A stretch of DNA of 64,000 nt from Oikopleura dioica (GCA_907165135.1 OU015568.1:13950001-14014000), one strand, 5' to 3'. Positions 27,801 to 47,962 are shown, counted from the first letter of the stretch. The notes: a model not told the origin generated them from the letters alone. Numbers and translations are program-made.

Positions 27801-30800
27801 ACTTAGGCAGTCAACACATCATTCAACACTTTTCACTCCAGATACTTATCACAACAAGAGAATGAAAACAATCATTGCCTCGCTTGAAAATCGTCCAAAA
27901 AAATGGTTTCCAAAATCTCAATCCGGCGCGGGCAAACGAAAGTCAAAAAACGGTCCAACAAAACTCAAGCTAACACCAGGTCGAAAACATCCAAATACCA
28001 AAACAAAGAAAAAACGAAATCAAACAACAAAAGATTTGAAAAAATCAAAGAAATCATCGAAAAAGAAAAAAGCATGAACTCATACCTAATTGCGAAACGT
28101 TTAGAACGAGTTGAACATTTTCAAGGTGTTTACTCCATTGATACTTTACCCAAAATTGAAAATTTTCCTTCTTTTATTGTTGTCAACTTATCGCCTGAAA
28201 TTTCAAAAGGCTCTCACTGGATCTCATTACGAATTATAAAGAGTAAAATTGAAATATTTGATAGTTTAGGCCTTAAAAAATATCCTACGCAGCTTTTTGA
28301 CTTTTTTGGTGATAAAGAAACCTTTTTTTATAAAAGAACCCAGTCAGACTCGTCATTTTATTGTGGTTTTTATGTTTGCTTCTTCGTTATTTTCCGTTCT
28401 CTTTATTCACGACAGAAACTTTCTTCTCTCTTTACTCATTCCTTTACTGTTAACGATCAATTACTTCTTTTCAAACTTTCTCAACTCTGGTGACTAAAAT
28501 TGGTGATATAATTGTCTAACTTTTTGCTCTTTTTAGACTGAAATCATGACAGAAGTTGAGTACTACGACCAAAAAGTTGTTAAACGGCATTATCCAAGAG
28601 AAGAGGACAGCTTGACCGGAAGGCTTAGCTTTAAGTTTGACGCCGATCCGAATCTTTTCCTTGTGAAAAATAAAATTGCGATTCATTTCACAATCGAGCT
28701 TGACAAGAATTATATTCCTTCAAATGGCTTTGCTAGCAAACAGTTCGGAAAGACTGAAGTTGCGGTGAATTCTCAGATTATCGATAACTCAAATTCAAAG
28801 TAAGGACTTAATTTTTGTTCTGATAATTATTTTTTCTTTAGTTCTCACTACTTGTTGGCAGACTACTTGACCAAACGTGTCAATTTCGACCCACTTTATG
28901 TTAATTCCGCATTCCAGATTGAGGGGTACTACGATGAATACAACTATGAGAATCTTGTTGATAGTGACTCAAAGAAAATGATTATAAATGGACGACGCCC
29001 ACAATGTTACGAAACATCTAACGGAAATTATATTTATGAACTTATCTTCCTTCCGACTCATGGTTTTTCATGGAGAACAAACCTCTTCCTCAAAACACAG
29101 ATCTTTCAATTACACTTTATCGTCTTAAACATGAGTTTTCGACAATGTTTATCGGAGAGAATGAAACTGATATGCTTCCAGCAGGAGAAGTCCTTAAAAT
29201 AACTGATGCCTACGCTATTGCTGAATACGTGTCATCGCCGAGCCTGAGAAACTACTTTGGGAGAATCAAATCAAAGCCAATCACATATAAATTCAATGAT
29301 ACTTTGATAACAACAATGAGTTTGCCAAAAGGAAGAAAAAATGTGCAACTTCTTAATGTGACTGGGGGAAATACCCCTGCATATCTGTTCTTTGGACTGA
29401 TTCAAACAGAAGCTCTTCATGGATCTTCTAAAATTGATTCTTCGAATTTCAGCTTTTTCAACAATCTTGTTCAAGTGAATGTCATGTTGAATGGTCAATC
29501 TTTAAATGGATATCCTCAGGTTTATCTTTTCAATTTCTTATTTTTTTTTATCCTTATCTTTAGAAAATCACAAATCAATATCCGATTCTTCCCTACTGGA
29601 AATATCTGGACACGCTTGGGCGAGTTAGTCAAGCTGATTTGTCATATGTTGTATCAATGGAAAACTACAAAGTGAACAACATTTTTGCTCATGAGTTTGA
29701 AGGAGAAGAAATCTCACAAGGCTGGCTATCTTTCTCTTTCGATTTTAGCACACCACTTGAAGATGATTACTCAATCGTTATTTGGTCTATCGTCTCGACC
29801 AAGCTCACGATTGACGAACATAAACAAGTTGAAAAAACCCTTCTTTGTAAGTAAACATATAATTAATCACTGGTTATGAATAGAGCACTGATTAACCAGC
29901 GCTTTAGAACTTCTGGTCTTCTTTTGCCCGCTCATCTCATTATCAAAATGTTTGTCACGATCAAAACTTTCACTTTTCGCTCCTACAATGGGGGCGGCTT
30001 TTTCAGGGTCAAGGGAACTTACATTCCTGGTTTTGAAACTGACCTTGATTATTCACGACCGACCAAAGAGATCAACTTACGACTGTTTGCAAAGACTGGT
30101 GATGAAGTCTCGAATGTCTTCCAAGCTCTCCAAATGCACACAGAATCACAACGTCCTGCAGATCTCTACACCACTTCTGATGCCAAACAATCCGACTGGG
30201 AAAAAGAACACAATGTCAAGCCTTCCTACACTTTCCGATTCAATCGTCCAGTCGACCAGAAAATCTAATTGTTTCTGCTTCTTTTGATCCCTCTCTTGAA
30301 AATTTCTTTCCTTTTCTTTTCAATTTTTTATTTACTCGAGTAATAAATTTGTTTGGTGATTATCTCTTTGGTCTTTCTTTGAAGCAAGTTTCTATTTACA
30401 AGCAGGCAATAATCAAAATTTCTGGTTCAGTAAAAAAATATGCTCTCGTATGCCATCAGCTTTTTCGAACCTTATGTCGAAGTTTTATTCACCCGTCATT
30501 CGAAAAATGTCCTTCTTGAATAAAATCAAAAAGTTTTTTTGCGGGTATGCTAACTCGACTACAGAAACTATAGAAGTTACTGCTGAAGAAGCTGCGATTA
30601 TGAAAGGTCACAAGAATTACGAGGATCATAGACATCCAGAATGTCTTATCTGTGCAATGCTTGATGGATATGTAGCGAAACGTTTGAAGAACTGAACAAA
30701 ATCATTTTCCATTTTTTTTTAAGAAAAACAAAAATGTCAAAAAAAAAGAAACTGCGGTGTATTCTTCCTGTACATAAAATTGGTGATAATAAAATTGGGT

Positions 30801-33800
30801 GATGAATTTCTTTGTCTTTCTTTATTTGTTTTTTCGCATGTCGAAGTTCCGCTTGAGCTATTTTCCTAAACATATCCAGGATAGCAAAATGTGCACGGAG
30901 TAACCAGTGCTTTTGAACCTCATGGCTAAAATTTCAAGTCTCTTCACAATAAGAAAAATATGTTTTTGCAGAAAGTTGAGAGTTTTAGCTGCACTTCTTA
31001 CAGAAGTGGTGTCTTACTCAATATTGTCGGTATCTGCGGTGATGATGAAAATTCAAGCCAAAAAGTTCGTCTCCACTACACGTCTGTCAATGTGACAAAT
31101 AATGTTCTTGCTTTTGAGAAAATAGCGATAATGAACAAAAACAGAAAAAGTGGCAAAGAAAGCTGGATACCTGTACAGATCCTTGGAACGGCGCCTAAAA
31201 AGGTCGACGATGAGCAGAATAATATTGTGTCATCTTACTTCGTTGATTTCAAAGATTTCACTCTTAAATACGAGCGACAAGACCTCTCCGATGACTGTCC
31301 TGTCTGCAAGACAAAAGACGTTTTTCGCTGGATTCAGAAAGAAGATAATGAACTCTGAGATATAACATTTCTCCTTCCTTTTACTCAAAAAAAAAATTGA
31401 TAAAAAAAATTCTGGTGAAACTCTCCTGTAAATAAAAATTTTCGGTGAAAATAAACTTTGGTGACAAAATTCCAAGTCTTTTTTAATTTGTATTCATTGT
31501 CGATAGAGTAAGTTCTAGTTTCCACAGGCATTCATGGGATCAAAGCAGTTCTGAGAGGTATTTTTGGGATCGGGGAGCTCAGAGAGGTATTTTTGGGATC
31601 GGGGAGCTCAGAGAGGTATTTTTGGGATCGGGGAGCTCAGAGAGGTATTTTTGGGATCGGGGAGCTCAGAGAGGTATTTTTGGGATCGGGGGAGCTCTGA
31701 GAGATATAACTGGACTTAGGCGATGAGAAAATCAAAAAAGACTCACCTCAGACTGACGGGGCTCTGACCCATTGACAGGTCTCTGACCCGTTGACAGGTC
31801 TCTGACCCCTTGACAGGCCTCTGACCCCTTGACAGGCCTCTGACCCCTTGACTGGCCTTAGTCCACCCTGACAGGCCTCAGACCCGTTGACAGGCCTCTG
31901 ACCCCTTGACTGGCCTTAGTCCACCCTGACAGGCCTCAGACCCCTTGATAGGTCTCTGACCCGTTGACAGGTCTCTGACCCCTTGACAGGCCTCTGACCC
32001 CTTGACAGGCCTCTGACCCCTTGACTGGCCTTAGTCCACCCTGACAGGCCTCAGACCCCTTGATAGGTCTCTGACCCGTTGACAGGTCTCTGACCCCTTG
32101 ACAGGCCTCTGACCCCTTGACAGGCCTCTGACCCCTTGACTGGACTTAGTCCACCCTGACAGGCCTCAGACCCCTTGATAGGTCTCAGACCCCTTGATAG
32201 GTCTCTGACCCGTTGGCAGGTCTCTGACCCCTTGACAGGCCTCTGACCCGTTGGCAGGCCTCTGACCCCTTGACTGGCCTTAGTCCACCCTGACAGGCCT
32301 CAGACCCCTTGATAGGTCTCAGACCCCTTGATAGGTCTCTGACCCGTTGACAGGTCTCTGACCCCTTGACAGGCCTCTGACCCGTTGACAGGCCTCTGGC
32401 CTCTTGACAGGCCTCTGACCCGTTGACAGGCCTCTGGCCTCTTGACAGGCTTCTGGCCCCTTGACGAACCTCTGGCCTCTTGACTGGGTTCTGGTCCCTT
32501 GACTGGCCTTAGTCCACCCTGACAGGCCTCTCTCCACCCTTACTGGCCTTAGTCCACCCTGACAGACCTCAGACCCCTTGACAGGTCTCTCCTCGACAGT
32601 CTATAAACGGGCAAACTGAATCTAGACCCTTCCGATTAGTCTCAGCCATGCAAACTTTGAAAGTGTTCTGAATTATCAACAGCAGCAATTGGGATAAAAC
32701 AAGTGAGACTAAAATGCATTTATTTCATCTTTGTTATGTAAAGACTACAGGTCAAGAGTTTTGTGATGTTGTATCCGCTTTTTCGAAACATGCTCTGATT
32801 TTGATGGGTAATGTCGACGAGGCGAGGGATGTCAGTCCAATCTGGAATGTTCTGCAAGAATTCTTTTTTCGATGACTTGTTTTTGATAAGGTTAGGTTCT
32901 ATTGGAAGAGAGGTCGAGATTTGAGGCCAAACAAATCGAAAGCGTGAGTCAGGATCTTCTGTGACGGGGTTTTCCAGCAAAAACGCAAAATCGATTCCAA
33001 AACGAAAAGGCGGTGAGATGAATTCGAATAGATCATCCACAACGTTAAACAAGTCGAAGTTCTTGTTAATCAATAGTCTAACGTGAGCATGTTCTACGAT
33101 CCGACCTGGTTTCGGAGGAGCAATGATAACACGATTCTGAAGTTGTCCCATCTTCTCCGTTTTCTCAAAGTATTCAAGCTCCTCCTTAGAGAGTGGAATG
33201 TATGTACCACCATACTCTTTGCGAATTGCTTCTAGGTCTACTCTTTCACTTTGATAGAATGGCATAGCGACGAGAAATTTTGATCACGTTTATATGGACT
33301 TTACAAATTTATTCTAGCGGAAAAAACAGTGAAAAATAAAGAAGCTTGTTTTTTTTCGGAGATGGATGAAATAAACAGTTAAAGCGGCTTGCCGTCGAGG
33401 GTCAGTGGCTCGCAGGTAATGCCATCATCCATGACGCGCATTTTTACAAATAAATTTGAAAGTAGAACTTTTTCAGTTGAAACTCGTTTAACAACATTGT
33501 TGGTAGTAGGGCGTAGAGTTCGCAAAGTGAATCGATTATTTGTTTCTATGTTTCCATACAAGCAATCAAGGAATTCTTGCAGTTTTAACTCTTGGTTATG
33601 CGGAACTCCTTTTGTTGATCGCTTAACCTTGTCATTTTTCGGATCATAGCCGAAATACATTTTGTTTCCGAGGCAAACAAGTGCTCCCGAATCTGTCTCC
33701 CATTCAGCTAGAAAGATTTGAATTCTACTTTTTAAGAAAATGGTTCTTACATTTTAAGAGACCAGGAGTTTTCTCGTTTAGGTTGGTGTTTTCAAGAACA

Positions 33801-36800
33801 AGCCATTTGCCACATTCTTGGAGAAACTCGTATTTCAACTCTTGGTGAACACAAGGTAAGAATGAAGTCATCATTTTTGAACGATTCGTGTCGATACATT
33901 CTTCACTCCTGGTAAAAGCTAGATATATTTATAAGACAAGCAATATTTAATAATAACTTACATATTGCGAGACTGTCTGTATCACAATAATTCAGCTTGT
34001 ATGATCCTGGCTTCAAATACTTGTGAAGAAATTTGTAGACGAAGGACAGAAAGTGAAGCTTTGAATTTTGAAGGATAGCAACTCCAAGAACAGTCGGTTT
34101 GTCGTCTTTGATTCGCTTTTTTTCGAAAGTAACCTCTGAAATTGAGTATTCTCCGTTTTCTTGATAGAGAGGCTGTGTTGATTTGAATGTTGGTTTAATT
34201 ATTGATCTAGCTAGTTGTTTTTCATCATCAAATTTGAGACTTGGTCGATCAACAACTTCGATGGCTTTACCGAATCCTCCACAGTTACCGATCGTTTTAA
34301 AAGCCAAAGCAAGGGCTTTATTAGGAGGATTCTCGTCTAGAGCGCTGACTCGGCCATTTGTTATAGAATCAGCATATTCGCTTAAAGATTTTGACGCTCT
34401 ATACTGTGTAAATGATCTTATATTTGTTATCTCTAAACCAATATCAAGATAGAATTTAGCCAGAGTTGTGAGAAGAAATATTTTCTTACCATTGTATGTC
34501 TGAATAACTGTTTCCTGATCACAATTTTTACCAAGCTTACTAAATTGGCTTTTCATGTATGGACTAAGAAGCTGATCTGTAATTTTCATTCTCTTTATAA
34601 TTGGTGGAAAATTGAGATACGATATTTTCTCGTATACTTCTTTGGGACAAGTTACATCAGCAACTATGAATCCATAAATTTGATCATTTTTTATACCCTC
34701 TATCAGACTTTTTTCTGTTTCTTTCGATTTGAAAATATGACCCCAATATCTGGAAATTTTTGTCAAATGAGCTTCATTTCTTCTTTGATTCCATTCACAC
34801 TCGCGCATTACATGAACCTGACCTAGTTCATTCAATCGACGAAACTTTTTCTCCCATTCCTTGTCAGCTCCTCCTGGATTGCAGTCAACACAGTGAGTAT
34901 GGTAATAACATCCAAGAAATTCAAAAAAATGATGTTGACCATCGACATTAGCATATCCGTCGATTTTGAAGTTCTCTACTTGATGTTCACCCCTAAAATA
35001 TTGATGTTCCAAAGGAACTCTTTCACCATTTGATTGAACAAGCAAGGGGCTAAATTCGTCAATGAATGTTAGCCACTGCAGGGCTGCGAAACTGTTTCCC
35101 GTAGACATGATCCTTTTGCGGAAAACGGCGTTGTCAAATTTCTCCCAAGTAATGCCTAAACATTCTTCGATTTCACCTTTATTTTTGCATTTTGAATTTA
35201 CCTGGCGTTGTCGGTAAGCTCATCTTTTGAGCAAACAAATACAAGGCATTAAAATCCAAAAAGACGATACGCGTGAAGGGATCTCCGTTCGGGGCAAACT
35301 TGGCATTTTTAGGGGCATCAACATCCGGGCGGAGCTCAGTGTAGCGAGAAAAAACGTTAACCAGCCCACCAATAATATTTTCACGCAAAAGTTGGTGCTC
35401 TTTTTTGAAGTTTCTGTGAAACGAGTCTAGATATAAATAATAAGAATATATATCCATAAGAAAATTGCTTACATGTCAGGGGCGAAGCTTTGGAGTAGCG
35501 CTGGAAAACACAAGCCATTGCGAATTTCGGTAAACTCATGCAGAATGAGGGATCGATCTTGAAAACATCAAAGAAGACACGAAACTGGTTGTCGATGGCC
35601 TTGGCAAATGGGGTGACATCCATGATGTTATAATGGCGGAGCCAATGTCCCATTGAATAATTCGGATTGATCGCTTGATTTTGATAAAACTCCTTTTTGC
35701 ACTTTTCATACTCTTCCTCATCGATTCCCTTATTCTTTAGGCTCGAGAAAAAGTCCTCAATTGGTGGAAATGTCCTGTCATTGACAATTTCCATTACGCT
35801 GTGATATTTTTCATACGGCCAAATTGACTTTACCTCAGTGATACCACCTTGTTTTAAGTACCCAGCTAAGTTTGTTGGAGAACTAAATAGCCGAGCATCT
35901 TTAAACTGATAAAAAGGGGTGGAAATAGTGAAATATTGGGTTCCCTTTTTATACAAACCAATTTCGCTTTATACTTTGTCTTAAGAAAAGGAATTATATA
36001 TGGAGCTAAAACTTTTAAATCAAAACCAGAACTATTGAATCCAAAGACATTCATCTTTGAATAATTTTCGAGCTCTCTTTTTATAAACCTTATTCTTTTC
36101 CTGATCGAAACAGGCTCCAATTTTATGTCAATTCCATCAAGTTTTTGAATGGCTTCTAAAATCTCACTTGGAAGATAATTTCTTTCATATGAAGCAAGAA
36201 GTTCAAGCTCGTCAAGAAATTTTTCAACGAGTTGCTGCGCTCCTTCGTTTGAGTCACATCTACGAATGAAAAATTTCTCGTAGCCAAAGTTACTTCCGAT
36301 AGCAATCGAAAGCAAGCGAAGTTCAGCGTGAATCGTCGTCACTTTGTTTGTTGTATTGACTGGACATTCCATTGTCTCGATGTCGAAAGTGACTAAAATT
36401 TTTTAATTTGGAGAGTTTGTTATTCAAGGTCTACCGAAACGAGTCTTTCTAAAGCCTCTCATCCTTTCTGAAAGGTAACCAGCTCGTATTGCTATTTCGA
36501 TCGGATAAATTGTATCGCCATATGGACATTGGAGTGGTATCGTTTCTTTTTTGTGTTGACAAGCTTTAACATGTGCCTCGAAATTTGATTTCTTAACATT
36601 TTCGTATCCACAAGAAAGGTTTTCGCATTTATAAACATTGGAGAAAACATCCATGTTATACAAAAATCTAAGCTGAAGAGGCTCGCTTGATGAGACAAGA
36701 TCTTGCTTTTTGACAAGAAAATTCAACGGCTTTTTTTGAAGAGAGTTTTTTGGGTTAAAAGACTGTAAAATATTGAATTTATGAAAAGTGTCAATATAAA

Positions 36801-39800
36801 GATACTCGTAGAAATTGATTTCTCTCTTCATTTCAGCAGAAATTTTTGAAAGATTTCTTGCAAATACATCTTTTGGTCCATCAAAAATATCAAACCCGTC
36901 AATCTTGAAAGCAAAATCTAATTTCGATGAGCATTTTTTTGCTCTCACTAATTTTTCCAAAACAGTTTCAAACGTGTAGTAATAAAAACAATCTTCCTTC
37001 TCTTCCACAAAGATGCTTGTTTTAGTTATCAAATTATCGTCAGCAAATTTGATCTTGATTGACTGTTTCGACATTGATCTTACCCGCACAATTTCAAGTT
37101 GATAAAACGCAATAATTTCTTCATTTGTTTTAGAAGAATTACAAATTGTCAATGACTGACAGTGTGCTAGAAATTTTCTGTCAGAAAGCTTACCATCTTT
37201 GAAAAATTTCTTGAATTTCTCTTTGTGTTTTTGTATCTCTCCTAAAGCTATCCAAGGATTAATTCCCGGAAAAAAGAAATTAAAGCGTTTCATAAGCTCC
37301 TTACCCTTTCCGGTTCATTTTATCTCAGACTTTTCCAGCAGACTGATTTTATCCGATTTGCATGCTCATCAACGCTCATTGATGGCGCTAAAATAGGAAG
37401 TATAAATTATCGAAAATATTTCTGTTCAAACTGAAAAATGCTCGCTGTTAAGCTTGTCAAAATAACAGACGAAGATGCGATAATTTACTGTCGCATATGT
37501 CGTAAGAAGACAAGTCTATCTCCGACATTCAGAGAAGTCACTCGTGCTCAGCTTGAAACAAATTCAGTGCCTGGTGGACAATGTAAAGACTGTTTCGGGA
37601 GATGGTACTATCCTTATACAAAATCTGAATGGAAAGAATTTATGGATAACGCAGATGAATTCGCCGAGGAGTGTTTTGTTGCTCGATCACCGCTTCTCCC
37701 GAGATTACTTTGTCGAACTTTTTCTCCGGGTGCCTGCATTGGTACAATTATAATAAGATCTCGCCAAATCAAGCTTGCATCACGAGAAATCTCGGAGGAT
37801 GAAAAGAAAAAATGCGTGATATGCTGGGAAGAAAACAAACAAATGGTAGTTAGCAAGACTGATATTTTGATAACAAATTTTAGGATCCTACACCCTGCCT
37901 TCACTACACGTGCGCTGATTGTCTAAGAACGCTCAAAGCGGATCCTGAGGAAGAAAGGAACAACAGATGCCCTATATGCCGGACTGATTTCGAATACCGA
38001 AATATCCGCCAAATCATCCGAGCTGAACGACGCCTGTAATCATCGTCATTGTTGTCTCCTTAGTTTCTTTGTTCTTTTTTTCATCCAATTTCTTGTGCAA
38101 ATTTCGACAAATAAATTCATTAGATCTAAACAAAATCTTGTGTTTCTTTATCTCAGCTTTACAATTTAGTCTCTCAAGTATAAGGCCCTTTTGAGTCGAA
38201 GTATTCAATTAAAATATTCGCAAACTTAATTTACTGAGATTACTGATATTCTTGAACTCGCAAAAACCTTTTCTGGAAATTCTAAAAGACCTTTTGTGAA
38301 ATTCGAAAAAGACCAAGGTCCGAGAGCAAGAAAACCTCTGTTAAAAACTCAAAAACTGTCCTCAACTCAGTAATACCTCCGGAAACTGGCCTGATCCTAT
38401 GAAAACCTCGAAAAACTGGTCCGAGCCTAGAAATACCTCCAAAAACTGACCTTAGCTCAGTTATAACTCTGGAAACTCGCCTGTTCCAAGTAAAACCTCT
38501 GGAAACTGGTCTGAGCCGAGTAATACCTCTGGATACTGGTCGAGCCCAGTTATACCTCCAAAAGCTGGTCTCAGTTCAGTAATACCGTCGGAAACTGTCC
38601 TGAGTCCAGTCAATTCCTGAAGACTGCTCTTCATCGAACAAGGCCCTTTATTTGCTTGAGTCAATCCGTAAACTATAAAATATATTTTTCCTGTCATTTT
38701 ATTTGCAATAAAGATGAGAACCTTTTATCTTTGAGAGCTTGTTTGTCTTTTATTTTTGTTTTAAAGGCACATTTTTCTACAGGAAGCTTATTATCACGAA
38801 TGTTTTTCTTGGCGGTTTGAAGAAGCTGCGTCTTGCTCTGGATGAATCTAAATAAATGATTAGGTTTTTGCCTGCGAATTTGTTTTCTTACCTAATAGCG
38901 TTTCTGTCTGTGACAGATTTGTAAGGGTTGAGTGCGCGTCCGTCGGCGTTGTGGTCTGTTGGCCTCTAATTTGCGTTTATTTTCTGTTTGGAAGAAAGCT
39001 TATTTTACCTTCAGCTTGATGATCCTCAATTGCCGGGCGCTGAGTGATATCCATTTCGTCCTCACTCTCCAATTCTTCGATTCGATCCGGATTCCGAATC
39101 ATTCGAATTCTTCGGGGCTCACGTTGTCTCTGTCTATTTCTTCCGTCTATTGAAAACTTTAGAACTCCTTTGAAAGATTTGATTTCTTACTTTCGTAGAC
39201 GATATAGAAGAAAAGTAATAGGATGAGAATAGCGATGACGCGATCATTCGTGCGCACACGTCCTTTTTGTATGTCGACATCGAATTCGAAGTCATCGTCT
39301 GGATTTGTACATTCACCCTCTGGGTTCGAATGATTTCTGCTCTGATCGTCTTGCTGTCTGCCTTGATCCGGGAATCCCTCTCCGTTTCGGCCATTGTTTC
39401 GATTTGGGCCACTGAATCCTTTGAAGAATGGAAAGAACATTTCTGAATGGAAAAACTGTCTACAATATTCTAGTTTTAGTTTCATATCAGTATTCAAAGA
39501 CAGCTTTTCTCCTTTAAGTGGCAGGTTTAAATGTCGAGTGGAAGTGGTGCTGAGATCGGCGTGTAGTGAACTAAGAATATATTTTATGAAGGCGAAAAGG
39601 AATGATAGAGATTACCGTTTCTTGTTGGCTTAGGTGTCTTCTTCTTCTTGTGGCAGAGGATGAGGATCAAGGTGAGAAGGAGAATAGTGTTGAAGGCGAG
39701 GAGGGTGATGACGATCATTTCAACCATGGAGAAGGTTTTTGGCGTGTTGTTTTCGTCTATTCAAGGTAAGAATCTTTTTGTCTATCTACTTTTACCAAGT

Positions 39801-42800
39801 TGGTTGACGTTTGAAGTTTCATTGATAATGGATGACGTAGCAGTCGGTGGTGTCCGTGTAGAGGTGATATTTGCCGACTCGTTACCGACTATTTATGTAA
39901 AATTCTGTTTTTCATTAATTCTTACGAAGACGGCATAGCTCGGAGACGGTTCGTTCATCATAGTAGTCCCATCGATAATCTTGGTCAAACTCCGACGAGT
40001 CGTCCATCGCGTCACGATTTTCAGTCTTATTTATGAAAGAATTTTATGCAATCTCTAGCGATCTGAGTTTCTTTCACAGCCTAAACATTGTCGGGGTTCT
40101 GGGTCGACGGAACAAGAACCAGACAAGGTTGATGAAGGGGAAAATCGCGAAAGCCAGTCCAGCAAGGTAGATGATGAATGTAGCGAGAAGACCAACGCAT
40201 TGAATCGCGAGAAAGACAAGGATCGAGGATTCGATGAAAGTGAGACCTTTTTTTAATTAAGTTAAAAATGAAAGAGTTTTCTGTTTTCTTTTTACCTCTT
40301 TGCTTGTTGACTTGCTGCTCAAGGTCCGAATCGTGAACGTCGTCGCCTTCGTAATTGTCCATTAGCCCAGATTACCGATTCAGTCTTTTATGCAAAAAGA
40401 TGTTATTTATTCACTTTCTTTCTAATTTAATCATTCAAAAAACATTCTTTTCACAGTCCTTTTTCAATCACCAACTGTCGATCCATTCTTGCCAGGATAC
40501 TTGAGGGCACCTCCATTCGTCCTTCTTGTCCTCTTTGTCATCTTCTTGCTGTTCTGTCTGCGTGTTGCTATCCACAGTCGGTTTCCGTCCGTCTTTCTTT
40601 TGCCGTCTTTCATTCAGAATCATTCGTTCTTCGTCTGCGCGTCTGTTTTGCAATTCGAGGTCGCGTTCTTCTAAGAAGACTTTTTTAGTAATAAAATAGG
40701 CTGATCTAACTACCTTCATTATCACAGCAATGCAAAACAAGCACTCTCCGTAAGTCAACCCAGAAGGAGATTATTCGAACTCGTCTTTTGTAAATGAGGA
40801 TTGCGAGCATGACCACTATTATAACCGAAACTGGGGCTAGAATGAAAATGAGAATGATCTTTCTATGTAACTCAATTAACCCGCTATTCCGACAGCGATT
40901 ATTTTTCCATTGAAAATTTCGTCGGGTTCGATTGTATTCGTTGAGGTACCATTGGTAACGGTCGAAAATGTGTGAGTGGTCGACGTTGATCCAAGAGAAG
41001 TTGTAGATGTTGTGTCCGTTGTGTGACCGGGGAACGTCAAAGGAGGGTGGATTGTTGGGAAAAAAAACATTCTTAACTCTTTTCGACTTTATTTTAACAT
41101 AATTTTCAGCTGATTTTATTCAAAATAGGGCATAGATTTTGAGATGAATTTAGTTTGCTTGAAAGAACAACTGCCTGAAACCAAGTTTACATCAAAATCT
41201 ACATCCCAGTTCAATTATCTTCAGCGAAAAAAAAAGAAATTTGTAAAGCAGGTCAGATAAAAAGTCGAAAACAGTCTTTGAGCGTCAATTTGGCGGCTAA
41301 TTCATATCGGTTATTATAATTTTGGCAAGTGGAAGAATTCTTTGAACGTTAATTTAACTCTTATTTCATATCGCCTTGTCTTATTGGTTGTAAATAAATG
41401 ATAAACGCAAAATTAAACCTTTCTTGTTTCTTGAGATGCACTCTATCGTCCAAAGCCTTTGTTACGCTATATTAGAATTTTATTAATCTGTTTTTTCTTT
41501 TTTTTTTTTGTTGTAATACCTTGTTTCGGATAAGTCGCATGTGGACGAATTTTGCGTGGAACATTTTGTCGTCTCTATAAGAATGTCTCTTTAGATTAAT
41601 ATATTAAGCCATTTTAAGTCAATCAGTTTTGAATGAAGAAAATAAAAAGGTTGATTGTCTCGTGATCTTGTTTGCGCTGTATGGCAACTTCAAGTTATGA
41701 TCTGGTGATGAACCTGCATCAGGTGGTTTGATTTTATTGCCTACGCATTCGAGGGTGAAGGAGCGTGCTCAAAACTCGCGCGCCCTGCGGTTCTCGCTAC
41801 CGATTCGCCGATTCATCCCCACGCGCTTAAGACTGCGAGTAACAGTAAAGCGCGCGCTGCTACAGATTCTCCACTCGGCCAGGCGCCAAAAACTTGCATT
41901 CTTTACACATTTTTGATAAGCGTGAGAAACCACCTATTCCCACGAGAACAAAGATGATAAACCTGCAAGATCAAACAAAGATACTAGATACGAATGAAGA
42001 GAAAGATCTCATAAGCAAAATCGAACAGGGAGATCTTGCTGCCCTCATCAAAATTCAATCTGAATTAGGTACTTTTATTTTCATCTATTCATTTATAAAA
42101 CATAATAGATGCCAAGCAGGCAGCTTCGACTTTCATCATCAAGATCACTAACGGTCAACTTGCAGAGTTGCAAAAAATCGTGACAGGTAAATTTCAATCG
42201 TGAAAGAAAAATGACTTATCTCTCCTCAAGAAAAGATCGCGTCTAAAATGGATACTACCACGGAGGATCTGACTGAGGTAATGGAAATGGAAACTTCCGG
42301 CTCTGCTAAATCTGACGATATGGACACAAACTAGGTAAATTTATGTCTCTTTTCCGATCAGAAATAAGCTCTTTTTACGGTTCCAGCTCAAGCAACCATT
42401 ATTGAGTAATCATCCGAAGCATAAAAACAATTCTCCTCTCCTCGTTGATTCCGACAATCACCACTTCATTGAAAATTTTCTCCAGTTTGTTCCTGACGCT
42501 ATTGATAATAGATAAATCCGCTCGTTAATAACTATCAAAACCGCTTATCACACCAGTTCATTTTCTTTTGAGTTCTTAAAGATACCTGCGCCACTTATCG
42601 AAAAAGTTCTTCCCTCTTTTATAACCTGCTATTATAATTCAAATGAACAGTTCCTCAATAATTTAATTGAAATAAAAAAGAAACTCGGTCATATATCTAC
42701 TTTGTTTTTTTTTTTTGTTTTATTTAAACAAGAGTATTATGGACGGCATCAAAAGGTTCTGAAATCGTGATATTCTCACGTCGGTCAGGATTTTTTCGGG

Positions 42801-45800
42801 AAACATTCTTCTTTTTCTCACAGATGATCATACACAATTTTGTGTAGAAGCCAACTGTGATGATAAGACCAATGAAGGCAACGCCGGAAACCCCAGTAAA
42901 GAAACGATGCTGGATTGAAAGAAGTTGATCTTTGAGCTCGCAGATAACATCGAAAAAAGGAAACTCTTCCGAAAGTGGAAGTGAGCGATTCATTTTTTTT
43001 TTCTGATTATTTTGGACCTTATCGTTGCATATTTATGGACTTTTCAGTGCTTATTATCAGTGCTTTTTTCAAACTTGGCAACAAAATGACAAAGTCAAAG
43101 TTTTTTAAACACCATTTTTATTTATAATTTTTTCGGTAAACATGAGTAAATAAGGACAAACACGAGATAAAGAAAGAACACCAAGAAACGCATAAAGAAA
43201 GGTAGAAGTTAGAGTTGAGTGTATGTTTTTATGGGCGAAATTGTGGGAGAAGGATCGGAGTAGGCTTCTTGTTCATAGATGGTCTCTTCGATAAACTCTA
43301 TGGCATCTTTTGTGATAATCCCAAATCTGAAACAGTCATCAAGTGTTTCACCTAAGAGATATGGGCTGAGACAGTGATCAATGATCGTGTCCGGCGTACC
43401 TCCGCGTGAAGGATTTTCCAGTTCTGATTGAAGTTGCTGTCTTTCTCTCTCCTCTGCTTCGGCAACCAACCCATTGATCATGTCATCGTCAACACTGTCG
43501 TCGTCGTCAAAGGTATCAGTGAGATCGATAACTATGAAAATATATTTATATATCTTTTTTTTTAATAATAGATACCTTCTGACCCGTCTTTCATATGACC
43601 ATCGACGTTGATTTTCCGATCAGGAGAGCCTGTTAAGTCAATAACTGAATCATGATAAACAATCTGGTAGAAAAATGTCTCTAACCTTGATCGTTTTTGT
43701 TTTCAGCAGGTGCGGCGAAGCGGATAACGCTTCTCCCGAAGCGCTGGTTAGGATCGTAGTCAGGTGGAGGTGATTTACCGATGATTTCCCATTGGGATGG
43801 ACTCCAGAGTTGCCATTTTTGAGACTTCTGCTGATCATCTTGACGTCGACAGCTTGATTCAGGACTGCCCTGGATCAGTTGAGAGCTTGGTCCAGGAGTG
43901 TCCTCGATCAGTTGAGAGCTTGGTGTAGGAGCGTCTCCGATCAGTCGTGAGCTTGATCTAGGTGTGTCTTCGATCAGTTGAGAGCGTGGTGATGGAGCGT
44001 CCCCGATCAGTCGAGAGCTTGGTCCAGGTGTGTCTTCGATCAGTCGAGAGCTTGGTCCAGGGGTGTCTTCGATCAGTTGAGAGCTCAACTCACCTTCGGT
44101 TTGAGAATTTTGTCCTGAGTGATGGTCTTTGTTATTGACATCATGAGCAGGCTGAAAGACTTCTTCTTCCGACTCGTAGTCCTCAACGTTTGAATAATCG
44201 TCACTCTCTAAAGCATCAGGCTCATTTTCGGACTCATCTTCCTGTTGATTGTTTTCTTCTAAGTCGTCAGCGGTATTCTTTTGCTTTTCTTCGTGTCGTG
44301 TATAACCGAAACTATCACGAGTTTGCTCATCCTCGATGTCATCGAAAACGTTTCTTGGTTGGACAGCTTCTCGGCGGACTCGTTTTGAAGGTTGTTCCGC
44401 GGCTTCTTCCTCTCGCAGTCTCTTTGAGGAATGGGCTTTTTTCTGCTTGAGTTTATCCTGACGCGCTTCCTCTGAAGACTTGGTTTCCTCCTCGGAGTCA
44501 AAGACCAAACGCCGTCTCGCGCCTAGAAAGTTTTAAAACTCTTTCGTAAACACCATGATATACCGCGAAGATTCGACCTCACATATGAGAGTTTTTCCTT
44601 CCGGGGAGCTTTTGGAATGGAATTACCTCGGGTGTGGGGAGGTGTGGTAGGAACCCATTCTTCATCACACGAGTCCTCTTCAGAGGAAGACTCATAAGCG
44701 CTAGAAACGTCACAATCGATCTCACTGCTAAATTCTTCGAGAATGTGTTCGAGCCTGAGGTTGCACTGGGAGCTTTTATCAGTCATATCAAGTGTCCCCC
44801 CTGAAAATATGATAAGATAATAAGAATCGTATTTTTGTCTACTTACGTAAATCACGAAGGACTGGTTCTTTGTCCTCGACATTTGCGAGTTCGTCCTCAA
44901 ACTCGCTAGCAAGTCGGTCTGTTTCATTGCGGTAATTAATATCTGCTTTTTGTATCTTCTTGAGAATTTTCAAGCACTTAGCCATTTTAAAATTTGACAG
45001 ATAGGTCAAATTTTGCACGATATTTATACGGACTGATCTTCAGCGCCGACGTAGATTTTTTGGCACACTTGTTTATCAACGCCAATTACCGGTTGCTTTG
45101 AAAATTCAAGCGATCATTTGTTCAAAATGTCAGTTTATTTTCCAGCGTTTGAACAAATTCACAATATTTTATTGACTCTGGACCTATATTGACTCAACTC
45201 ATGCATATTTTTCTTTGATGTATTTATAAACAGTGTCAAAGGACGTTTCCTCTTTTGAACTGCATGAGATCTGGTCTAAAACGAAAGACCACTTGTAAAA
45301 ATATCGCCTTAGCTCAATAATATCTCTCAGAAATCTGTCCGATCCCGAAAATACCTCAGAAATCTGTCCGATCCCGAAAATACCTCAGGAATCTGTCCGA
45401 TCCCAAAAATACCTCAGATATCGCCCCGATCCCAAAAATACCTCAGAAATCGCCCCGATCCCAAAATACCTCAGGAATCGCCCCGATCCCAAAAATACCT
45501 CAGGAATCGCCCCGATCCCAAAAATACCTCAGGAATCGCCCCGATCCCAAAAATACCTCAGGAATCGCCCCGATCTCAAAAATACCTTTCAGAATCGGTC
45601 TGATCCCAAAAATACCTTCGGAATCGGCCTGTAATACTTTCAAAAGCTGGTCTGAGCCCAACAATACTCCGTTTCAGCTTGAGCTCAGTCCACATGCTGG
45701 ATAAAATCTCTCATTCCAATAACACTCTGTAGCAGCTAAGAACTCGATATTGTTGCTCCTATTTCTGAGCTGGACTTCTGCGACCCTGATAATTTTCCTT

Positions 45801-47962
45801 TTTAACTTCATGTTAACACTTTTTTCTTGAATAGAAAAACGACTTATTTATATTTGAGATAATTTATTAAGGATATCCAATGACGATGACAATAAATAAA
45901 TATCAAGCTTCATTTTACAGAAATAGAAACATTGAGAGTAGCTTACAAAGGAATAAGTGCTTTAGAGTTTCATTTTACTTTTTCTTAGAAGTATAAGTAC
46001 TGTTCATGCTATTCATCTTCTAGTTTCATTTTATGTCGAGTGTGAAGATTCTTGCCGCTCGAGCGAACTTGATTCGAAAATGAACCAAAAGAGGGAGCCA
46101 CATTCTTTGAGATAACCCACTGAGTCCGTCTATTTGTTTTACTTCTTTGAAACGGAAATCGATTAGTTACTTGATCCTTTGAAAGATGAAATTTTGATCC
46201 TGATGATTAGTTCTCATAAAAATGAATTTCTTACTATGTTTGGATGGCTAATGTTACATGTAATAATGAAGAGCAAATAATGAAGAAGTTTCATCATTTT
46301 AGTATCCAGAAAGTTTTTTCATTGAAACTTTATCTGAAAGAACGAAATAGATTTCCGTCATTTTGGGTGAAAAGCGCCACGCTGCCCGTCGCATTCCCGA
46401 TACAATCCCTACTCATGTTTATATTTGAAAAGTCTCATCTCAGGGTCAGTTTCGGGTCTCAAGGGATTCGCCTGCCCCCGAACAGGCGGGTGACAAAAAT
46501 GATCGGACCAAGCGGGTGACAAGCCGGCGATGCTCGAACTGCCCATCTCCGCAGGGAACAGCGAGTCTCGGTTGGTCTTATTTTTACAGAGGATCAAGAT
46601 TATTTTCGACCCTAAATTTTTAACGGTAAGTTCTCCTTTGTCAGATTTCTATTGCTAGAAATTTACTCTTTTCTGTTAAGGCTACTGAAAAGATCTCTGG
46701 CAGCAAATTTCCAGAAAAGTTATGTTTTTACCATAAAATGATGAAAGATAAGAAGAGATCAGCTGGATAATTAAAAAAGACTTTTCAAACGGAAAAAGAT
46801 CACACGACAGCTAAATTATAATTAGATTACAATAGGATGAACTTTGATGGAGGTTTTATTGAATAAACTCAAGTTTTCAGAAGTTTTGAGTATGATTTTC
46901 GGAATCTCCATGGTCGAATTAGTATAAATCACTTTTTCCTGAAAATTTTTGAGCAAAAATGCTCATGGCCCTCCGAAAAGTGAGCCTTGTGCAGATCAGC
47001 TGGACCGTCGCAACAAACGTCTGATTATGATTTTCCTCGGTGGATTAGCGATTTCCCACTGAAACTCGCTGTTTTTGTTAATAAACAACATAAAAGTTTC
47101 TAGAAGGTTATTTTAATAAGTTCAAGTTATTTGAATAACGGTTATCGTAATAACAAGTTATTTGAATAACAAGTTATTTCAATAACAAGTTATTTGAATA
47201 ACTTGGTTATTAAAATAACCTTCTAGAAATTTTTATGTTATTTTTGAGCTTCCTTTGTTTTGAAGACTCATGTTTATATTTTATATTTAGTTTACTAATA
47301 TTTATCATATGTTTACGTTTAATATAAATATTTTAACTTGTTTATATATTTCATAAATATTTATAATTATTTACCTTTCTTTGTTTACATTATCTCCATT
47401 ATTGAAAAAAGCTTATGTACATACTACTCTCGATGAGTCGGTTTTGACATGTTTTCAGCACTACGGAAATCGAAGATCTCCACGTTAAATTGGCGGAATC
47501 AGATGCCATGTGCGAAAAGTGGAAGGCGGAGTACGAAGAGCTCGAGAACTTCTACGCGCCGATCCGAGCTGATCTCGCTAAATTCGCTGAAGAGAGCAGA
47601 CACTGGGGGTAAGTCAAATCAAAAGTTAAAACGTTGTTACATGAACTGTTCAGCTCTGAAAACGAAAAGAAGTCGAAGGAGTTGGCAGCTCTGAACTCGA
47701 AATTGGCGGACCAGATGAGCCACGCCAATCACAAGCAAAAGATCAAGTACATGGTAAGTCAATGAATTCAAGAGCGCCTTGTTCACATTCCTTTCAGAAC
47801 AAGATCAAAGACGAGAACGAGCTGCTCAAGACCAAACTGTCCTTCGCCGAGTGTCAGATGAAGAAGCTCAAGAAAGAAAACGACGCTCTTCGTGATGACC
47901 TCAACGTCGTCCGAAACGTACGACGCTTCGACCCCAAAAAGGCTTTCCAAGGAAAGCAATAA
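21805..47962 (+). CDS. HMMR: Hyaluronan-mediated motility receptor (RHAMM) coiled-coil spindle protein, split by the Polinton insertion in intron 24525-47458
   Basis: N-terminus MSFAKSKRTTYFDD...PGPERYNP, long coiled coil, C-terminal HANHKQKIKYM-NKIKDENELLK...RRFDPKKAF motif; exons join in frame across the insertion (DR|TTEIEDL). Confidence 0.85.
24544..24878 (+). repeat. Left terminal inverted repeat
   Basis: Reverse complement of ~47072-47428; the right copy has an extra ~19-nt segment and a few substitutions. Confidence 0.93.
25580..26707 (+). CDS. Polinton A32/FtsK-like packaging ATPase, with Ser/Lys-rich tail overlapping the integrase frame
   Basis: Walker A GSSGAGKT, Walker B IVLDDL, then SGKRSLNVMIMTQN typical of Polinton ATPases. 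Confidence 0.92.
   Translation: MSTMISGEILPQKEFAYPFRILLSGSSGAGKTYIAKQVLLNRHLFQKKTKRVLYFYPCFLEEKPVQWDDLGIPVSYRVGIPSQDDIDEMMPHTTIVLDDLYEEAIQSQAIDHLFRVTSGKRSLNVMIMTQNNYAAGKFGRNIRLNCNATFLCRNCLDGTINKRVCNTAGLQKAFKRASEDIKNKSYPYMFLDQSPRGHASSYRLYTDIFSKYPVVYSVTGMKACIVPFNDFKQNFNIIERENTFEATAKKDDEKYSSCKTIETSRVKAKTRCDSFTDDSSESEVERKRTRKRRKRSVPEKKSKKKTKKSKRRRPSTSSESETSSASSSSGKESSESTSDSEKTEEDSDGSDSSPVRKRCKRSSVLSESSGVSQAE
26331..27548 (+). CDS. Polinton retroviral-like DDE integrase
   Basis: FMGDL, YVLLIIDCFSRFIW, LITDEGLEF, ASMAERVNQTIK, YNSTPHRAIGMAP; C-terminal VRV...FEKGY...NWT module. Confidence 0.95.
   Translation: MTKNTHRAKQSKHQGLKQKQDVTALQMTRQSRRLRGKEPENDERDLSPRRNQRKRQRNPSEDDHQLPPKVKHPQQAQAQVKNQVNQQATLKKQKKTVTDQIQALYENVASAPAFSAKVAEFLRQNKTHSTHRRITKKRFPRRKIIVDSPFKIFMGDLIEYKKFKFSNRQYAYVLLIIDCFSRFIWTRPVKTKGGIDVANALNDIFQDFLEWPNSLITDEGLEFYNVNVKKILDRYGMHHYSIKTKLKASMAERVNQTIKKRVELFMKSNKTKNWIDVLPEIVKGYNSTPHRAIGMAPSQVSHENRAQVFAHLFPDFDLKVKPRLKIGNVVRVKIEKGIFEKGYTQNWTDKIYVIIDIRQRAGVVWYKIADEEGNRQPGIKYYFELNFVADDLESFRDNDQGAESS
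27499..27865 (+). CDS. Candidate minor capsid (penton-like single jelly-roll) protein; needs a 1-nt correction in the A8 run at 27560-27567
   Basis: MILNLFETMTKELKVPEIFF + EKNQEYNVQIISAVCN...AFITCNSIASCYG...FPLN...FSIDL...FSLQILI; beta-strand pattern and position between integrase and protease; family assignment is inference. Confidence 0.4.
27862..28077 (+). CDS. Small highly basic protein, candidate virion core protein
   Basis: 71 aa, 27 K+R versus 2 D+E, contains QSGAG; ATGA overlaps with both neighbours. Confidence 0.6.
   Translation: MKTIIASLENRPKKWFPKSQSGAGKRKSKNGPTKLKLTPGRKHPNTKTKKKRNQTTKDLKKSKKSSKKKKA
28074..28493 (+). CDS. Adenain-like cysteine maturation protease
   Basis: GSHWISL (His), IEIFDSLG (Asp), TQSDSSFYCGFY (Gln, Cys); ATG at 28074 within ORF 27903-28493. 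Confidence 0.92.
   Translation: MNSYLIAKRLERVEHFQGVYSIDTLPKIENFPSFIVVNLSPEISKGSHWISLRIIKSKIEIFDSLGLKKYPTQLFDFFGDKETFFYKRTQSDSSFYCGFYVCFFVIFRSLYSRQKLSSLFTHSFTVNDQLLLFKLSQLW
28546..29854 (+). CDS. Polinton major capsid protein (double jelly-roll), ~407 aa, two introns (28800-28841, 29520-29563) and a 1-nt deletion in the T5 run at 29064-29068
   Basis: Joined frame gives ...KPLPQNTDLSITLYR...GGNTPAYLFFGLIQTEALHGSSKIDSSNFSFFNNLVQVNVMLNGQSLNGYP..., matching the recalled Polinton MCP pattern; size and position next to the protease fit. Confidence 0.78.
29876..30268 (+). CDS. Polinton hypothetical protein, 130 aa
   Basis: ORF 21 nt after the MCP stop, same strand. Confidence 0.5.
   Translation: MNRALINQRFRTSGLLLPAHLIIKMFVTIKTFTFRSYNGGGFFRVKGTYIPGFETDLDYSRPTKEINLRLFAKTGDEVSNVFQALQMHTESQRPADLYTTSDAKQSDWEKEHNVKPSYTFRFNRPVDQKI
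30450..30695 (+). CDS. Polinton hypothetical protein, 81 aa (HxxHxxCxxC motif)
   Basis: ORF with DHRHPECLIC; small, so uncertain. Confidence 0.4.
   Translation: MPSAFSNLMSKFYSPVIRKMSFLNKIKKFFCGYANSTTETIEVTAEEAAIMKGHKNYEDHRHPECLICAMLDGYVAKRLKN
30960..31358 (+). CDS. Polinton hypothetical protein, 132 aa
   Basis: Open frame with CPVC near the C-terminus; last gene of the plus-strand block. Confidence 0.5.
   Translation: MFLQKVESFSCTSYRSGVLLNIVGICGDDENSSQKVRLHYTSVNVTNNVLAFEKIAIMNKNRKSGKESWIPVQILGTAPKKVDDEQNNIVSSYFVDFKDFTLKYERQDLSDDCPVCKTKDVFRWIQKEDNEL
31546..31700 (-). repeat. 29-bp tandem array (GAGGTATTTTTGGGATCGGGGAGCTCAGA), ~5 copies
   Basis: Direct reading; the core is the reverse complement of the 45320-45640 unit. 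Confidence 0.95.
31755..32590. repeat. 19-bp minisatellite (CTCTGACCCCTTGACAGGC variants) with higher-order blocks
   Basis: About 40 units; variant ACTGGCCTTAGTCCACCCTG recurs at multiples of the unit length. Confidence 0.95.
32720..33265 (-). CDS. Polinton hypothetical protein, 181 aa, downstream of pPolB
   Basis: Clean ATG-stop ORF with TATAAA 24 nt upstream. Confidence 0.75.
   Translation of the reverse strand: MPFYQSERVDLEAIRKEYGGTYIPLSKEELEYFEKTEKMGQLQNRVIIAPPKPGRIVEHAHVRLLINKNFDLFNVVDDLFEFISPPFRFGIDFAFLLENPVTEDPDSRFRFVWPQISTSLPIEPNLIKNKSSKKEFLQNIPDWTDIPRLVDITHQNQSMFRKSGYNITKLLTCSLYITKMK
33379..37293 (-). CDS. Protein-primed family B DNA polymerase (pPolB), five introns, 1-nt deletion at 35946-35950; true start uncertain
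   Basis: ExoI FVTFDIET (made by splicing), ExoII FNSSGFD, FKDA, motif A DFNALY, motif B KTIGNCGGFGK, motif C YCDTDS, PGLLKSE, KRSTKGV; introns 36393-36434, 35427-35472, 35156-35201, 33919-33961, 33708-33750. Confidence 0.95.
37438..38039 (+). CDS. RING-HC (C3HC4) E3 ubiquitin-ligase-like protein, 187 aa, one intron (37846-37883)
   Basis: After splicing: CVIC-x11-CLH-x2-CADC-x17-CPIC; extra N-terminal CxxC pairs (CRIC, CKDC). Confidence 0.85.
38350..38620 (+). repeat. Degenerate ~30-bp tandem array (AATACCTCYGGAAACTGGTCTGAGCC-like)
   Basis: About 8-9 diverged units sharing AATACCTC with the other arrays. Confidence 0.85.
39159..39497 (-). CDS. Polinton small protein with one hydrophobic segment (VIAILILLLFFYIVY); likely spliced to downstream exons
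   Basis: ORF plus a GTAAG donor right after the hydrophobic stretch and an acceptor near 39146. Confidence 0.45.
   Translation of the reverse strand: MNTDMKLKLEYCRQFFHSEMFFPFFKGFSGPNRNNGRNGEGFPDQGRQQDDQSRNHSNPEGECTNPDDDFEFDVDIQKGRVRTNDRVIAILILLLFFYIVYESKKSNLSKEF
39582..39970 (-). CDS. Polinton candidate type-I membrane glycoprotein (Ser/Thr stalk with NES/NIT/NET sequons, TM IVITLLAFNTILLLTLILILC, KKKK)
   Basis: Exon fragments read by hand; one junction is off by one base, possibly the A5 run. Confidence 0.45.
40710..41070 (-). CDS. Polinton candidate mucin-like single-pass membrane protein, intron 40837-40880
   Basis: Thr-rich HTTDTTSTTSLGSTSTTHTFSTVTNGTST; splicing yields TM IIAVGIAAPVSVIIVVMLAILIY followed by KRR. 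Confidence 0.55.
41954..42334 (+). CDS. Polinton hypothetical acidic helical protein, 98 aa, two introns (42069-42108, 42187-42230)
   Basis: Both GT-AG introns keep the frame to a stop at 42332-42334. Confidence 0.65.
42724..42993 (-). CDS. Polinton small single-pass membrane protein, 89 aa
   Basis: FFTGVSGVAFIGLIITVGFY hydrophobic segment then basic KKK; TATA-like motif 39 nt upstream. Confidence 0.55.
   Translation of the reverse strand: MNRSLPLSEEFPFFDVICELKDQLLSIQHRFFTGVSGVAFIGLIITVGFYTKLCMIICEKKKNVSRKNPDRRENITISEPFDAVHNTLV
43209..44985 (-). CDS. Polinton acidic disordered protein with RxL motif, 11-aa repeats and two VIDLT SIMs; at least 4 introns
   Basis: Start MAKCLKILKK at 44985; introns 44801-44846, 44523-44563 and 43532-43575 keep the frame; the junction near 43665-43730 is unresolved. 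Confidence 0.65.
43850..44090 (-). repeat. 33-bp coding tandem repeat (SSQLIEDTPGP x~7)
   Basis: Direct reading of the DNA and of ORF 43681-44508. Confidence 0.9.
45320..45660 (+). repeat. 29-bp tandem array (CGCCCCGATCCCAAAAATACCTCAGGAAT), ~10 copies
   Basis: Direct reading; inverted relative of 31546-31700. Confidence 0.95.
47072..47428 (-). repeat. Right terminal inverted repeat
   Basis: Reverse complement of the left TIR, ending ...GTACATACTACT. Confidence 0.93.

Follow-up and report, generated by a model that had tools for sequence, protein, structure and literature searches.

Does the accessory gene at 43209-44985 of a Polinton in the invertebrate chordate Oikopleura dioica encode one half of a split SUMO-targeted ubiquitin ligase (STUbL), or does its product act alone? 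How Polintons evade silencing by the host and schedule their replication is, to our knowledge, little understood. The accessory classes described in PMC8502044 (in excerpt) point at Rb and apoptosis. A preliminary description of 64,000 nucleotides of O. dioica DNA (the whole 64-kb stretch analyzed, hereafter the window) had tentatively joined a protein with two SUMO-interacting motifs (SIM1 and SIM2), a cyclin-docking motif and CDK sites to a separate RING protein of the same element. We call its gene the SIM gene.

The SIM gene lies in an element that bears all of the structural marks of a Polinton (terminal inverted repeats, AG-type ends and a 6-bp target duplication):
24544..47428, no strand given: Polinton/Maverick element, complete-looking, 22.9 kb, with AGTAGT termini and terminal inverted repeats.
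The inverted terminal arm is 308 nt long and 99% complementary, and the duplication CTCGAT stands on both sides (24538-24543 and 47429-47434). The core gene set that characterizes Polintons is present, namely a protein-primed PolB, a retroviral-type integrase, adenain and a packaging ATPase. The integrase exceeds the Pfam cut-off (PF00665) in the window itself. For adenain (PF00770), the match in the window is weak (E 0.01) and that in the homologous locus L020 exceeds the cut-off, PolB (PF03175, protein-primed) is above the cut-off in the homologous locus L003, and the adenain and PolB of the window are tied to these two loci via tblastn. The P-loop ATPase is A32-like, with a weak Pox_A32 match only (E 0.037). 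A four-exon gene downstream of the protease, for which no library match was found, is presumed from its position to be the capsid gene. The best match of the integrase is an O. dioica protein (P0001, 80% identity); next come proteins from marine metagenomes, with identities of 72-73% and of about 55%. Other O. dioica records fall in the second cluster of integrase matches. The host gene around the Polinton encodes a coiled-coil protein and matches HMMR_C weakly.

Several other features of the window were recorded alongside. With the element removed, the host intron (24525-24543 / 47435-47458) would measure 43 nt, and the insertion has stretched it about 500-fold; the flanking host exons remain in frame, with weak HMMR_C similarity. 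Host DNA also holds an exact 300-nt duplication (14832-15131 and 18227-18526, 3.4 kb apart) and, at 51695-52683, a unit of 1 kb that may be a non-autonomous transposon: its inverted ends measure 64 nt and flank a 56-nt tandem array. Within the element, the ATPase frame shares ~460 nt with the integrase frame (25574-27548), an S/K-rich tail lying over a Q/K-rich head. This overlap is seen again in L002 (1315-3367), and the public annotations P0129 and P0130 fuse the two into one protein. The conserved gene directly downstream of PolB is a single open frame in the window (32723-33283) and two frames with a short gap between them in L002 (6636-7224), which suggests intron gain or loss. Several junctions have no clean GT-AG solution (PolB 35869-36010 and 35384-35450; presumed capsid gene 29040-29080), and non-canonical donors or frameshifts are possible there. 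Two short plus-strand frames (30504-30695 and 30957-31358), each with a terminal CxxC, had no match in L001 or L002 by tblastn. A single family comprises three scattered 29-30-nt tandem arrays (31553-31707, 38368-38618 and 45339-45626), the outer two being mutually inverted, and a 19-nt array of about 44 copies (31754-32590) adjoins the first; these arrays could be enhancer- or origin-like repeats. Two small membrane proteins with no Pfam match are predicted on the minus strand at 40450-41120 and 42727-42995, one spliced and Thr-rich with a hydrophobic segment and an acidic tail, the other of 89 aa with a hydrophobic segment. Between the RING and SIM genes, at 38800-40370 (minus), lies a multi-exon gene of basic/acidic low complexity, possibly two genes.

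The SIM gene runs on the minus strand from 44985 to 43209, with five predicted exons that encode 534 aa without an internal stop. Its start codon (44985) and stop codon (43209-43211) agree with the limits proposed before:
45022..45028, minus strand: TATA-like box, 43 nt above the start codon.
44847..44985, minus strand: exon 1, 46 codons, start codon in an A-rich context.
44564..44800, minus strand: exon 2, with an acidic Ser-rich CK2-type tract and a Fbw7-type T-P-P-x-T site.
43686..44522, minus strand: exon 3 in the best model, frame open in 0/5,000 base shuffles.
43645..43685, minus strand: intron 3 in the best model, 41 nt, phase 1; alternatives are acceptors 43664 and 43630 and donors 43728, 43778 and 44093.
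43576..43644, minus strand: exon 4, with SIM1 and then a full CDK site, SPDR.
43209..43531, minus strand: exon 5, with SIM2, an acidic flank, weakly predicted helices, SPIK and a C-terminal YTQL.
The four GT-AG introns (44846-44801, 46 nt; 44563-44523, 41 nt; 43685-43645, 41 nt; 43575-43532, 44 nt) are all in phase 1, and introns across the element, including that of the RING gene, measure 35-46 nt. GC content is 41-49% in the exons and 11-32% in the introns of the SIM gene. The frame of exon 5 is open in 0.14% of shuffles, and the 56 codons that follow the repeat array are open in 7%. Synonymous codon usage, applied as a frame test, did not separate the frames.

The third junction had been placed at 43665-43730, which corresponds to an intron of 65 nt (43728-43664). 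This intron is in frame (527 aa), but its splice sites are weak and its GC contrast runs the wrong way. With matrices built from six donors and eight acceptors, some of them taken from the SIM gene itself, donor 43728 scores -1.45 vs 7.86 for 43685 and acceptor 43664 scores -1.05 vs 2.14 for 43645; a 49%-GC stretch would become intronic and a 26%-GC stretch exonic. The better splice scores and GC contrast lead us to prefer intron 43685-43645, so that SIM1 spans a splice junction. At 41 nt, this intron is in line with the others of the element. Some choices are closer: the in-frame acceptor 43630, 15 nt from 43645, scores 2.10 vs 2.14, and its use deletes SIM1, and the in-phase donors 44093 (equal in score to 43685) and 43778 give 398 or 503 aa with loss of the repeats and/or the PPxY motif. 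SIM2 and the docking motif RRLVF are retained in all four splice models tested. Homology-guided intron finding in the core genes gave clean results at three of nine junctions (42, 44 and 46 nt); one further junction had a 43-nt solution ranked fourth, and for the other five no clear solution emerged.

SIM2 was borne out as described: EVIDLT is made across intron 43575-43532, with an acidic run directly after it. For SIM1 the VIDLT core holds and the proposed DSVIDLT context does not, the best model reading Q-V-IDLT over the junction. In that model both VIDLT motifs straddle splice junctions, each joining a junction Val to IDLT (codons at 43642-43631 for SIM1 and 43529-43518 for SIM2), and they are 23 residues apart. 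Two motifs of the form [VI][VI]DL[TS] arose in 0/20,000 composition shuffles from whose pool the four junction positions were excluded. In six frames of the whole window the pattern occurs twice, both times in the SIM gene, and in 46 related loci (148,736 nt) it has two matches, each just after a stop. The IDLT codons of SIM1 and SIM2 differ at 5/12 bases, all silently, which points to likeness at the protein level rather than to a DNA duplication; the corresponding figure (8.5e-5 under random placement) expresses that protein-level likeness and is not an independent probability, since the sites were chosen for their match.

The EVIDLT hexamer over the exon 4/5 junction is identical to the Ubc9-binding motif of adenovirus E1A. 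In E1A, EVIDLT is necessary and sufficient for binding Ubc9, disturbs polySUMOylation and alters SUMO-chain-dependent bodies (PMC5030357, PMC5930299, both in excerpt). The VIDLT core is also the high-affinity type-b SIM of PIAS1, tandem peptides of which bind di-SUMO2 at 3.8 uM (PMC3901395, in excerpt), and phosphorylation beside a SIM increases affinity (PMC12751080, in excerpt). The proposed binding to the SUMO pathway is thus supported at the level of motifs, VIDLT being the PIAS1-type core, and EVIDLT, through Ubc9, would offer a RING-independent route to the disturbance of SUMO chains.

The cyclin-docking motif ARRRLVF is present at 44520-44500 (minus), followed by DSEEE, and its RRLVF is identical to the cyclin A2 motif of CDC6 (LKGRRLVF). 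Of the shuffled sequences, 1.3% contain R[RK]Lx?F and 0.14% contain RRLx?F[DE]. The favored docking form has an RxLxF core and an acidic C-flank, with viral motifs the strongest binders, but in the screen under 15% of the RxL peptides that fit the strict consensus bound cyclins, and the consensus alone predicts binding poorly (PMC12356897, in excerpt). Cyclin-CDK docking is likewise a supported motif-level prediction, given the RxLxF core and acidic C-flank. The S/T-P sites number 15, two of which are full CDK consensus sites: SPDR, directly after SIM1, and SPIK (43238-43227). Two full sites arise in 14% of shuffles, so SPIK alone means little; the eight S/T-P sites outside the repeat array are reached in 0.9%. 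We also recovered the 11-aa repeats, seven copies of 33 nt each at 43855..44085 (minus). Every copy holds exactly one S/T-P, in four of them as T-P-x-x-S, and two repeats without TP have SP or TP two residues further on, possibly through one event. Silent changes make up 5/13 of the repeat variants vs 25% expected, no clear excess. Two ideas were set aside: kinship of the 33-mer with the non-coding 19/29/30-nt arrays of the element (4-24/100 shuffles reach the score) and an SQ/TQ cluster (reached in 31% of shuffles without the repeats). Position 1460 of L003 has ARRLVFSD in another reading frame that overlies the beginning of the integrase; a stop follows directly, and the match is probably coincidental.

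Other short motifs, picked among many patterns tried and defined by general consensus forms, are treated as leads:
44371..44424, minus strand: KRLR-x-KRVRR, which we take to be bipartite NLS-like, with basic clusters at aa 159 and 172.
43756..43767, minus strand: PPDY, a PPxY WW-domain ligand motif, found in 4.4% of shuffles and presumably connected with WW/Nedd4 ligases.
PPDY stands 27 residues before SIM1. TPPHT (44645-44631, minus) and four TPxxS are presumed to be Fbw7-type sites, and the C-terminal YTQL, PDZ class I-like, is reached in 2.5% of shuffles. The protein is 12% E, 11% S and 10.5% D, and no domain was found in Pfam, PHROG or PDB. Neither a RING nor a Cys/His cluster is present: its seven Cys are scattered, with no CxxC or CxH, and no Pfam RING appeared in the scanned exons. 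A search for LxCxE, CR1, paired CxxC, a zinc finger and PxDLS found none of them in the protein. AlphaFold, run on exon 5 without an alignment, returned pLDDT 55.6 and pTM 0.24 with four low-confidence helices, and exon 5 had no usable match in the Atlas. Exon 3 had no homologue among 2,092 candidates of 153-489 aa, a range that a full-length 534-aa orthologue would fall outside. Scans of viral contigs, prokaryote genomes and one metagenome were empty. Another metagenome scan gave the 46 related loci, none of which extends past the PolB start into the arm of the SIM gene; L002, the longest close relative, ends about 300 nt past that start.

The separate RING gene invoked in the preliminary description does exist:
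37438..38039, plus strand: RING gene, with an N-terminal CxxC-x26-CxxC domain and a C-terminal RING-HC (C3HC4).
Its exon 2 reaches 29.2 bits vs PF13920 (cut-off 27, E 8e-7), and the best PDB matches of this exon are RINGs at E about 0.02. The RING-HC is interrupted by one intron, from 37846 or 37849 to 37883 (38 or 35 nt), and the C3HC4 ligand pattern of exon 2 is completed by the CxxC of exon 1. No homologue of exon 1 was found among 15 candidates, and against the Atlas its RING leads score 0.75-0.77 only, below 0.8. The RING protein has neither a VIDL-type SIM nor LxCxE. A distance of 5.2 kb, with other predicted genes in it, separates the RING gene from the SIM gene, and the two are convergent. 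Upstream of the RING gene, TATAAAT(T)ATCG at 37401 resembles the TATA-like box of the SIM gene, a shared pattern chosen after both sites had been seen, and only these two matched within the element.

Could the two genes together make a STUbL, the SIM protein serving as the SUMO-targeting subunit and the RING-HC protein as the catalytic one, through direct contact or, in the manner of ARKL1 and RNF111, via SUMO on the RING protein? Both genes are intact within one element, and the RING has its C3HC4 ligands without a VIDL-type SIM of its own, together with an Arg after the last Cys whose role we presume from general knowledge. The multiple SIMs of a STUbL are there by pattern (two VIDLT, one dependent on acceptor choice), the 23-residue spacing suits chain binding, the similar TATA-like motifs upstream of both genes were noticed post hoc, and a single LKAD in the RING protein resembles a SUMO-acceptor site, of a kind common by chance. 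Such a complex is possible because ARKL1, a RING-less protein with two SIMs, helps the ligase RNF111 through SUMO on that ligase (PMC10542384, in excerpt). Against this, a STUbL carries a RING in the same chain as its SIMs or in both subunits, as in Slx5-Slx8, where Slx5 has its own C-terminal RING (PMC3873881, in excerpt), whereas the SIM protein has neither a RING nor a remnant of one. The viral STUbLs ICP0, ORF61 and K-Rta are each a single protein (PMC5030357, in excerpt). The two genes are non-adjacent, 0/46 related loci reach this arm or match either gene, and RING-like clusters also occur in other eukaryotic DNA viruses (Atlas leads of 0.75-0.77 only), so the RING is explicable without a SIM partner. 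We consider the split STUbL improbable. We also give little credence to a more elaborate, cell-cycle-gated version, in which the RING-less SIM adaptor, switched by cyclin-CDK beside SIM1, would steer the RING-HC protein to SUMOylated silencing factors while the 15-nt alternative acceptor toggled between one and two SIMs. If true, such a two-gene STUbL would give a transposon-like virus a module devoted to countering SUMO-based silencing.

The SIM protein might instead recruit a host ligase, the SIMs (and RxL) choosing targets and the PPxY or Fbw7-type sites bringing in a host HECT or SCF enzyme, for SUMO- or cyclin-targeted degradation without the RING of the element. This fits PPDY at 27 residues before SIM1, TPPHT and the four TPxxS, and E1A does bind Fbw7 complexes (PMC5930299, in excerpt), but PPxY arose in 4.4% of shuffles among many patterns tried and is lost with donor 43778 or 44093, and the degron sites are equally explained by control of the protein's own turnover; we regard such an adaptor as doubtful. 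A self-limiting or latency role, in which the SIMs would bring SUMOylated co-repressors onto the element, or binding to cyclin would block activation in the wrong phase, and the integrated copy would stay quiet, is suggested by the SIMs of a viral persistence factor (KSHV LANA) and of the host restriction factor SIMC1 (PMC12751080, in excerpt), and the motifs themselves give no direction. No DNA-binding domain was found that would aim repression at the element, however, and the E1A-identical motif works against SUMO chains, which makes this role rather unlikely. The gene may also be real only in part, a low-complexity accessory protein that in its true spliced form lacks SIM1 and/or the repeats and most of whose motifs are incidental. 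The similar scores of acceptors 43645 and 43630, the equal scores of donors 44093 and 43685, the chance opening of the 56 post-array codons and the lack of homologues in our searches leave this a slender chance, set against the retention of SIM2 and RRLVF in every model tested, the silent-only divergence of the IDLT codon sets, which argues that both are translated, and the match of the 41-nt intron to the other introns of the element.

The element, its open frames, the fit of the splice sites, the motifs and their excess over chance are read directly from the DNA. Building on these, the interpretation that we prefer, with middling confidence, is that the SIM gene is a Polinton accessory gene for a largely unstructured, probably nuclear, E1A-like motif hub that would act alone, bind SUMO/Ubc9 and be gated by cyclin-CDK. 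The predicted protein likely helps the element to escape silencing and to time itself to the cell cycle. It would be imported through the bipartite NLS-like stretch, and the probable partners of its two VIDLT motifs are SUMO chains and/or Ubc9, the SUMO E2. Avid binding to poly-SUMOylated repressors on the chromatin of the element, or a block to chain building by Ubc9, could then weaken SUMO-dependent silencing. In flies and worms, silencing by the piRNA/Argonaute route makes use of SUMO (10.1101/533091, PMC8131101, both in excerpt). RRLVF likely docks cyclin A/E-CDK, and the kinase would phosphorylate many S/T-P sites of the protein; such multisite phosphorylation (SPDR by SIM1, one S/T-P per repeat, the Fbw7-type sites) may tune SUMO affinity and may cause the protein to be destroyed at a set stage of the cell cycle. 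The element would thus become active at a time when the host can furnish what replication needs, and the RING gene, under the motif-hub interpretation, would encode an independent ligase. Whether the effect is anti- or pro-silencing is not readable from the motifs, and the anti-silencing direction given here is one that we infer.

The adenovirus lineage, we assume, is related to that of Polintons. Human adenovirus E1A resembles the SIM protein as a disordered motif hub with an identical CR2 EVIDLT that targets SUMO and cell-cycle machinery (PMC5930299, PMC5030357, both in excerpt); unlike E1A, the SIM protein lacks LxCxE, CR1, the CxxC zinc finger and PxDLS, has two VIDLT motifs rather than one, RxLxF and a length of 534 aa, and no sequence homology was found between the two. 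The Oncoids of adintoviruses and Polintons are also motif-defined accessory genes upstream of PolB in animal Polintons, with acidic CK2 tracts (PMC8502044, in excerpt). Oncoids are defined by LxCxE, CR1 and CxxC (PMC8502044; 10.1101/2024.03.25.586562, both in excerpt), whereas the SIM protein has neither LxCxE, CR1 nor paired CxxC and is proposed to reach the cell cycle via cyclin docking and SUMO rather than Rb; it would therefore resemble an Oncoid or E1A in its mode of action but be neither. With the STUbLs RNF4, Slx5-Slx8 and viral ICP0/ORF61 it shares tandem type-b SIMs in a disordered region and a RING-HC in the same element, but SIMs and RING are here in different genes, the SIM protein is RING-less, unlike Slx5, and the complex is hypothetical. 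ARKL1 is likewise RING-less, has two SIMs and CK2-type Ser tracts, and assists a separate RING ligase, RNF111 (PMC10542384, in excerpt); unlike the SIM protein, it is a paralogue of its partner's N-terminus, and the partner here is hypothetical. With CDC6, HPV E1 and MuHV-1 M97 the SIM protein has in common the RxLxF core, the acidic flank and clustered CDK sites, RRLVF being the same as in CDC6, but it has no AAA+, helicase or kinase domain, and its N-flank differs from that of CDC6.

In the open-licence full-text literature, with the supplementary genome maps of PMC8502044 outside its scope, we found no SIM- or RxL-bearing Polinton protein, and a term search of PMC10748475 and PMC11131425, both in excerpt, gave no mention of SUMO or a RING protein. 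If SUMO/Ubc9 binding and cyclin docking serve escape from silencing and the timing of replication here, the SIM gene would be a case of convergent motif mimicry of E1A and CDC6 in a Polinton of an invertebrate chordate, and its SIM and RxL motifs would allow SUMO-dependent silencing to be probed directly as a battleground for Polintons.
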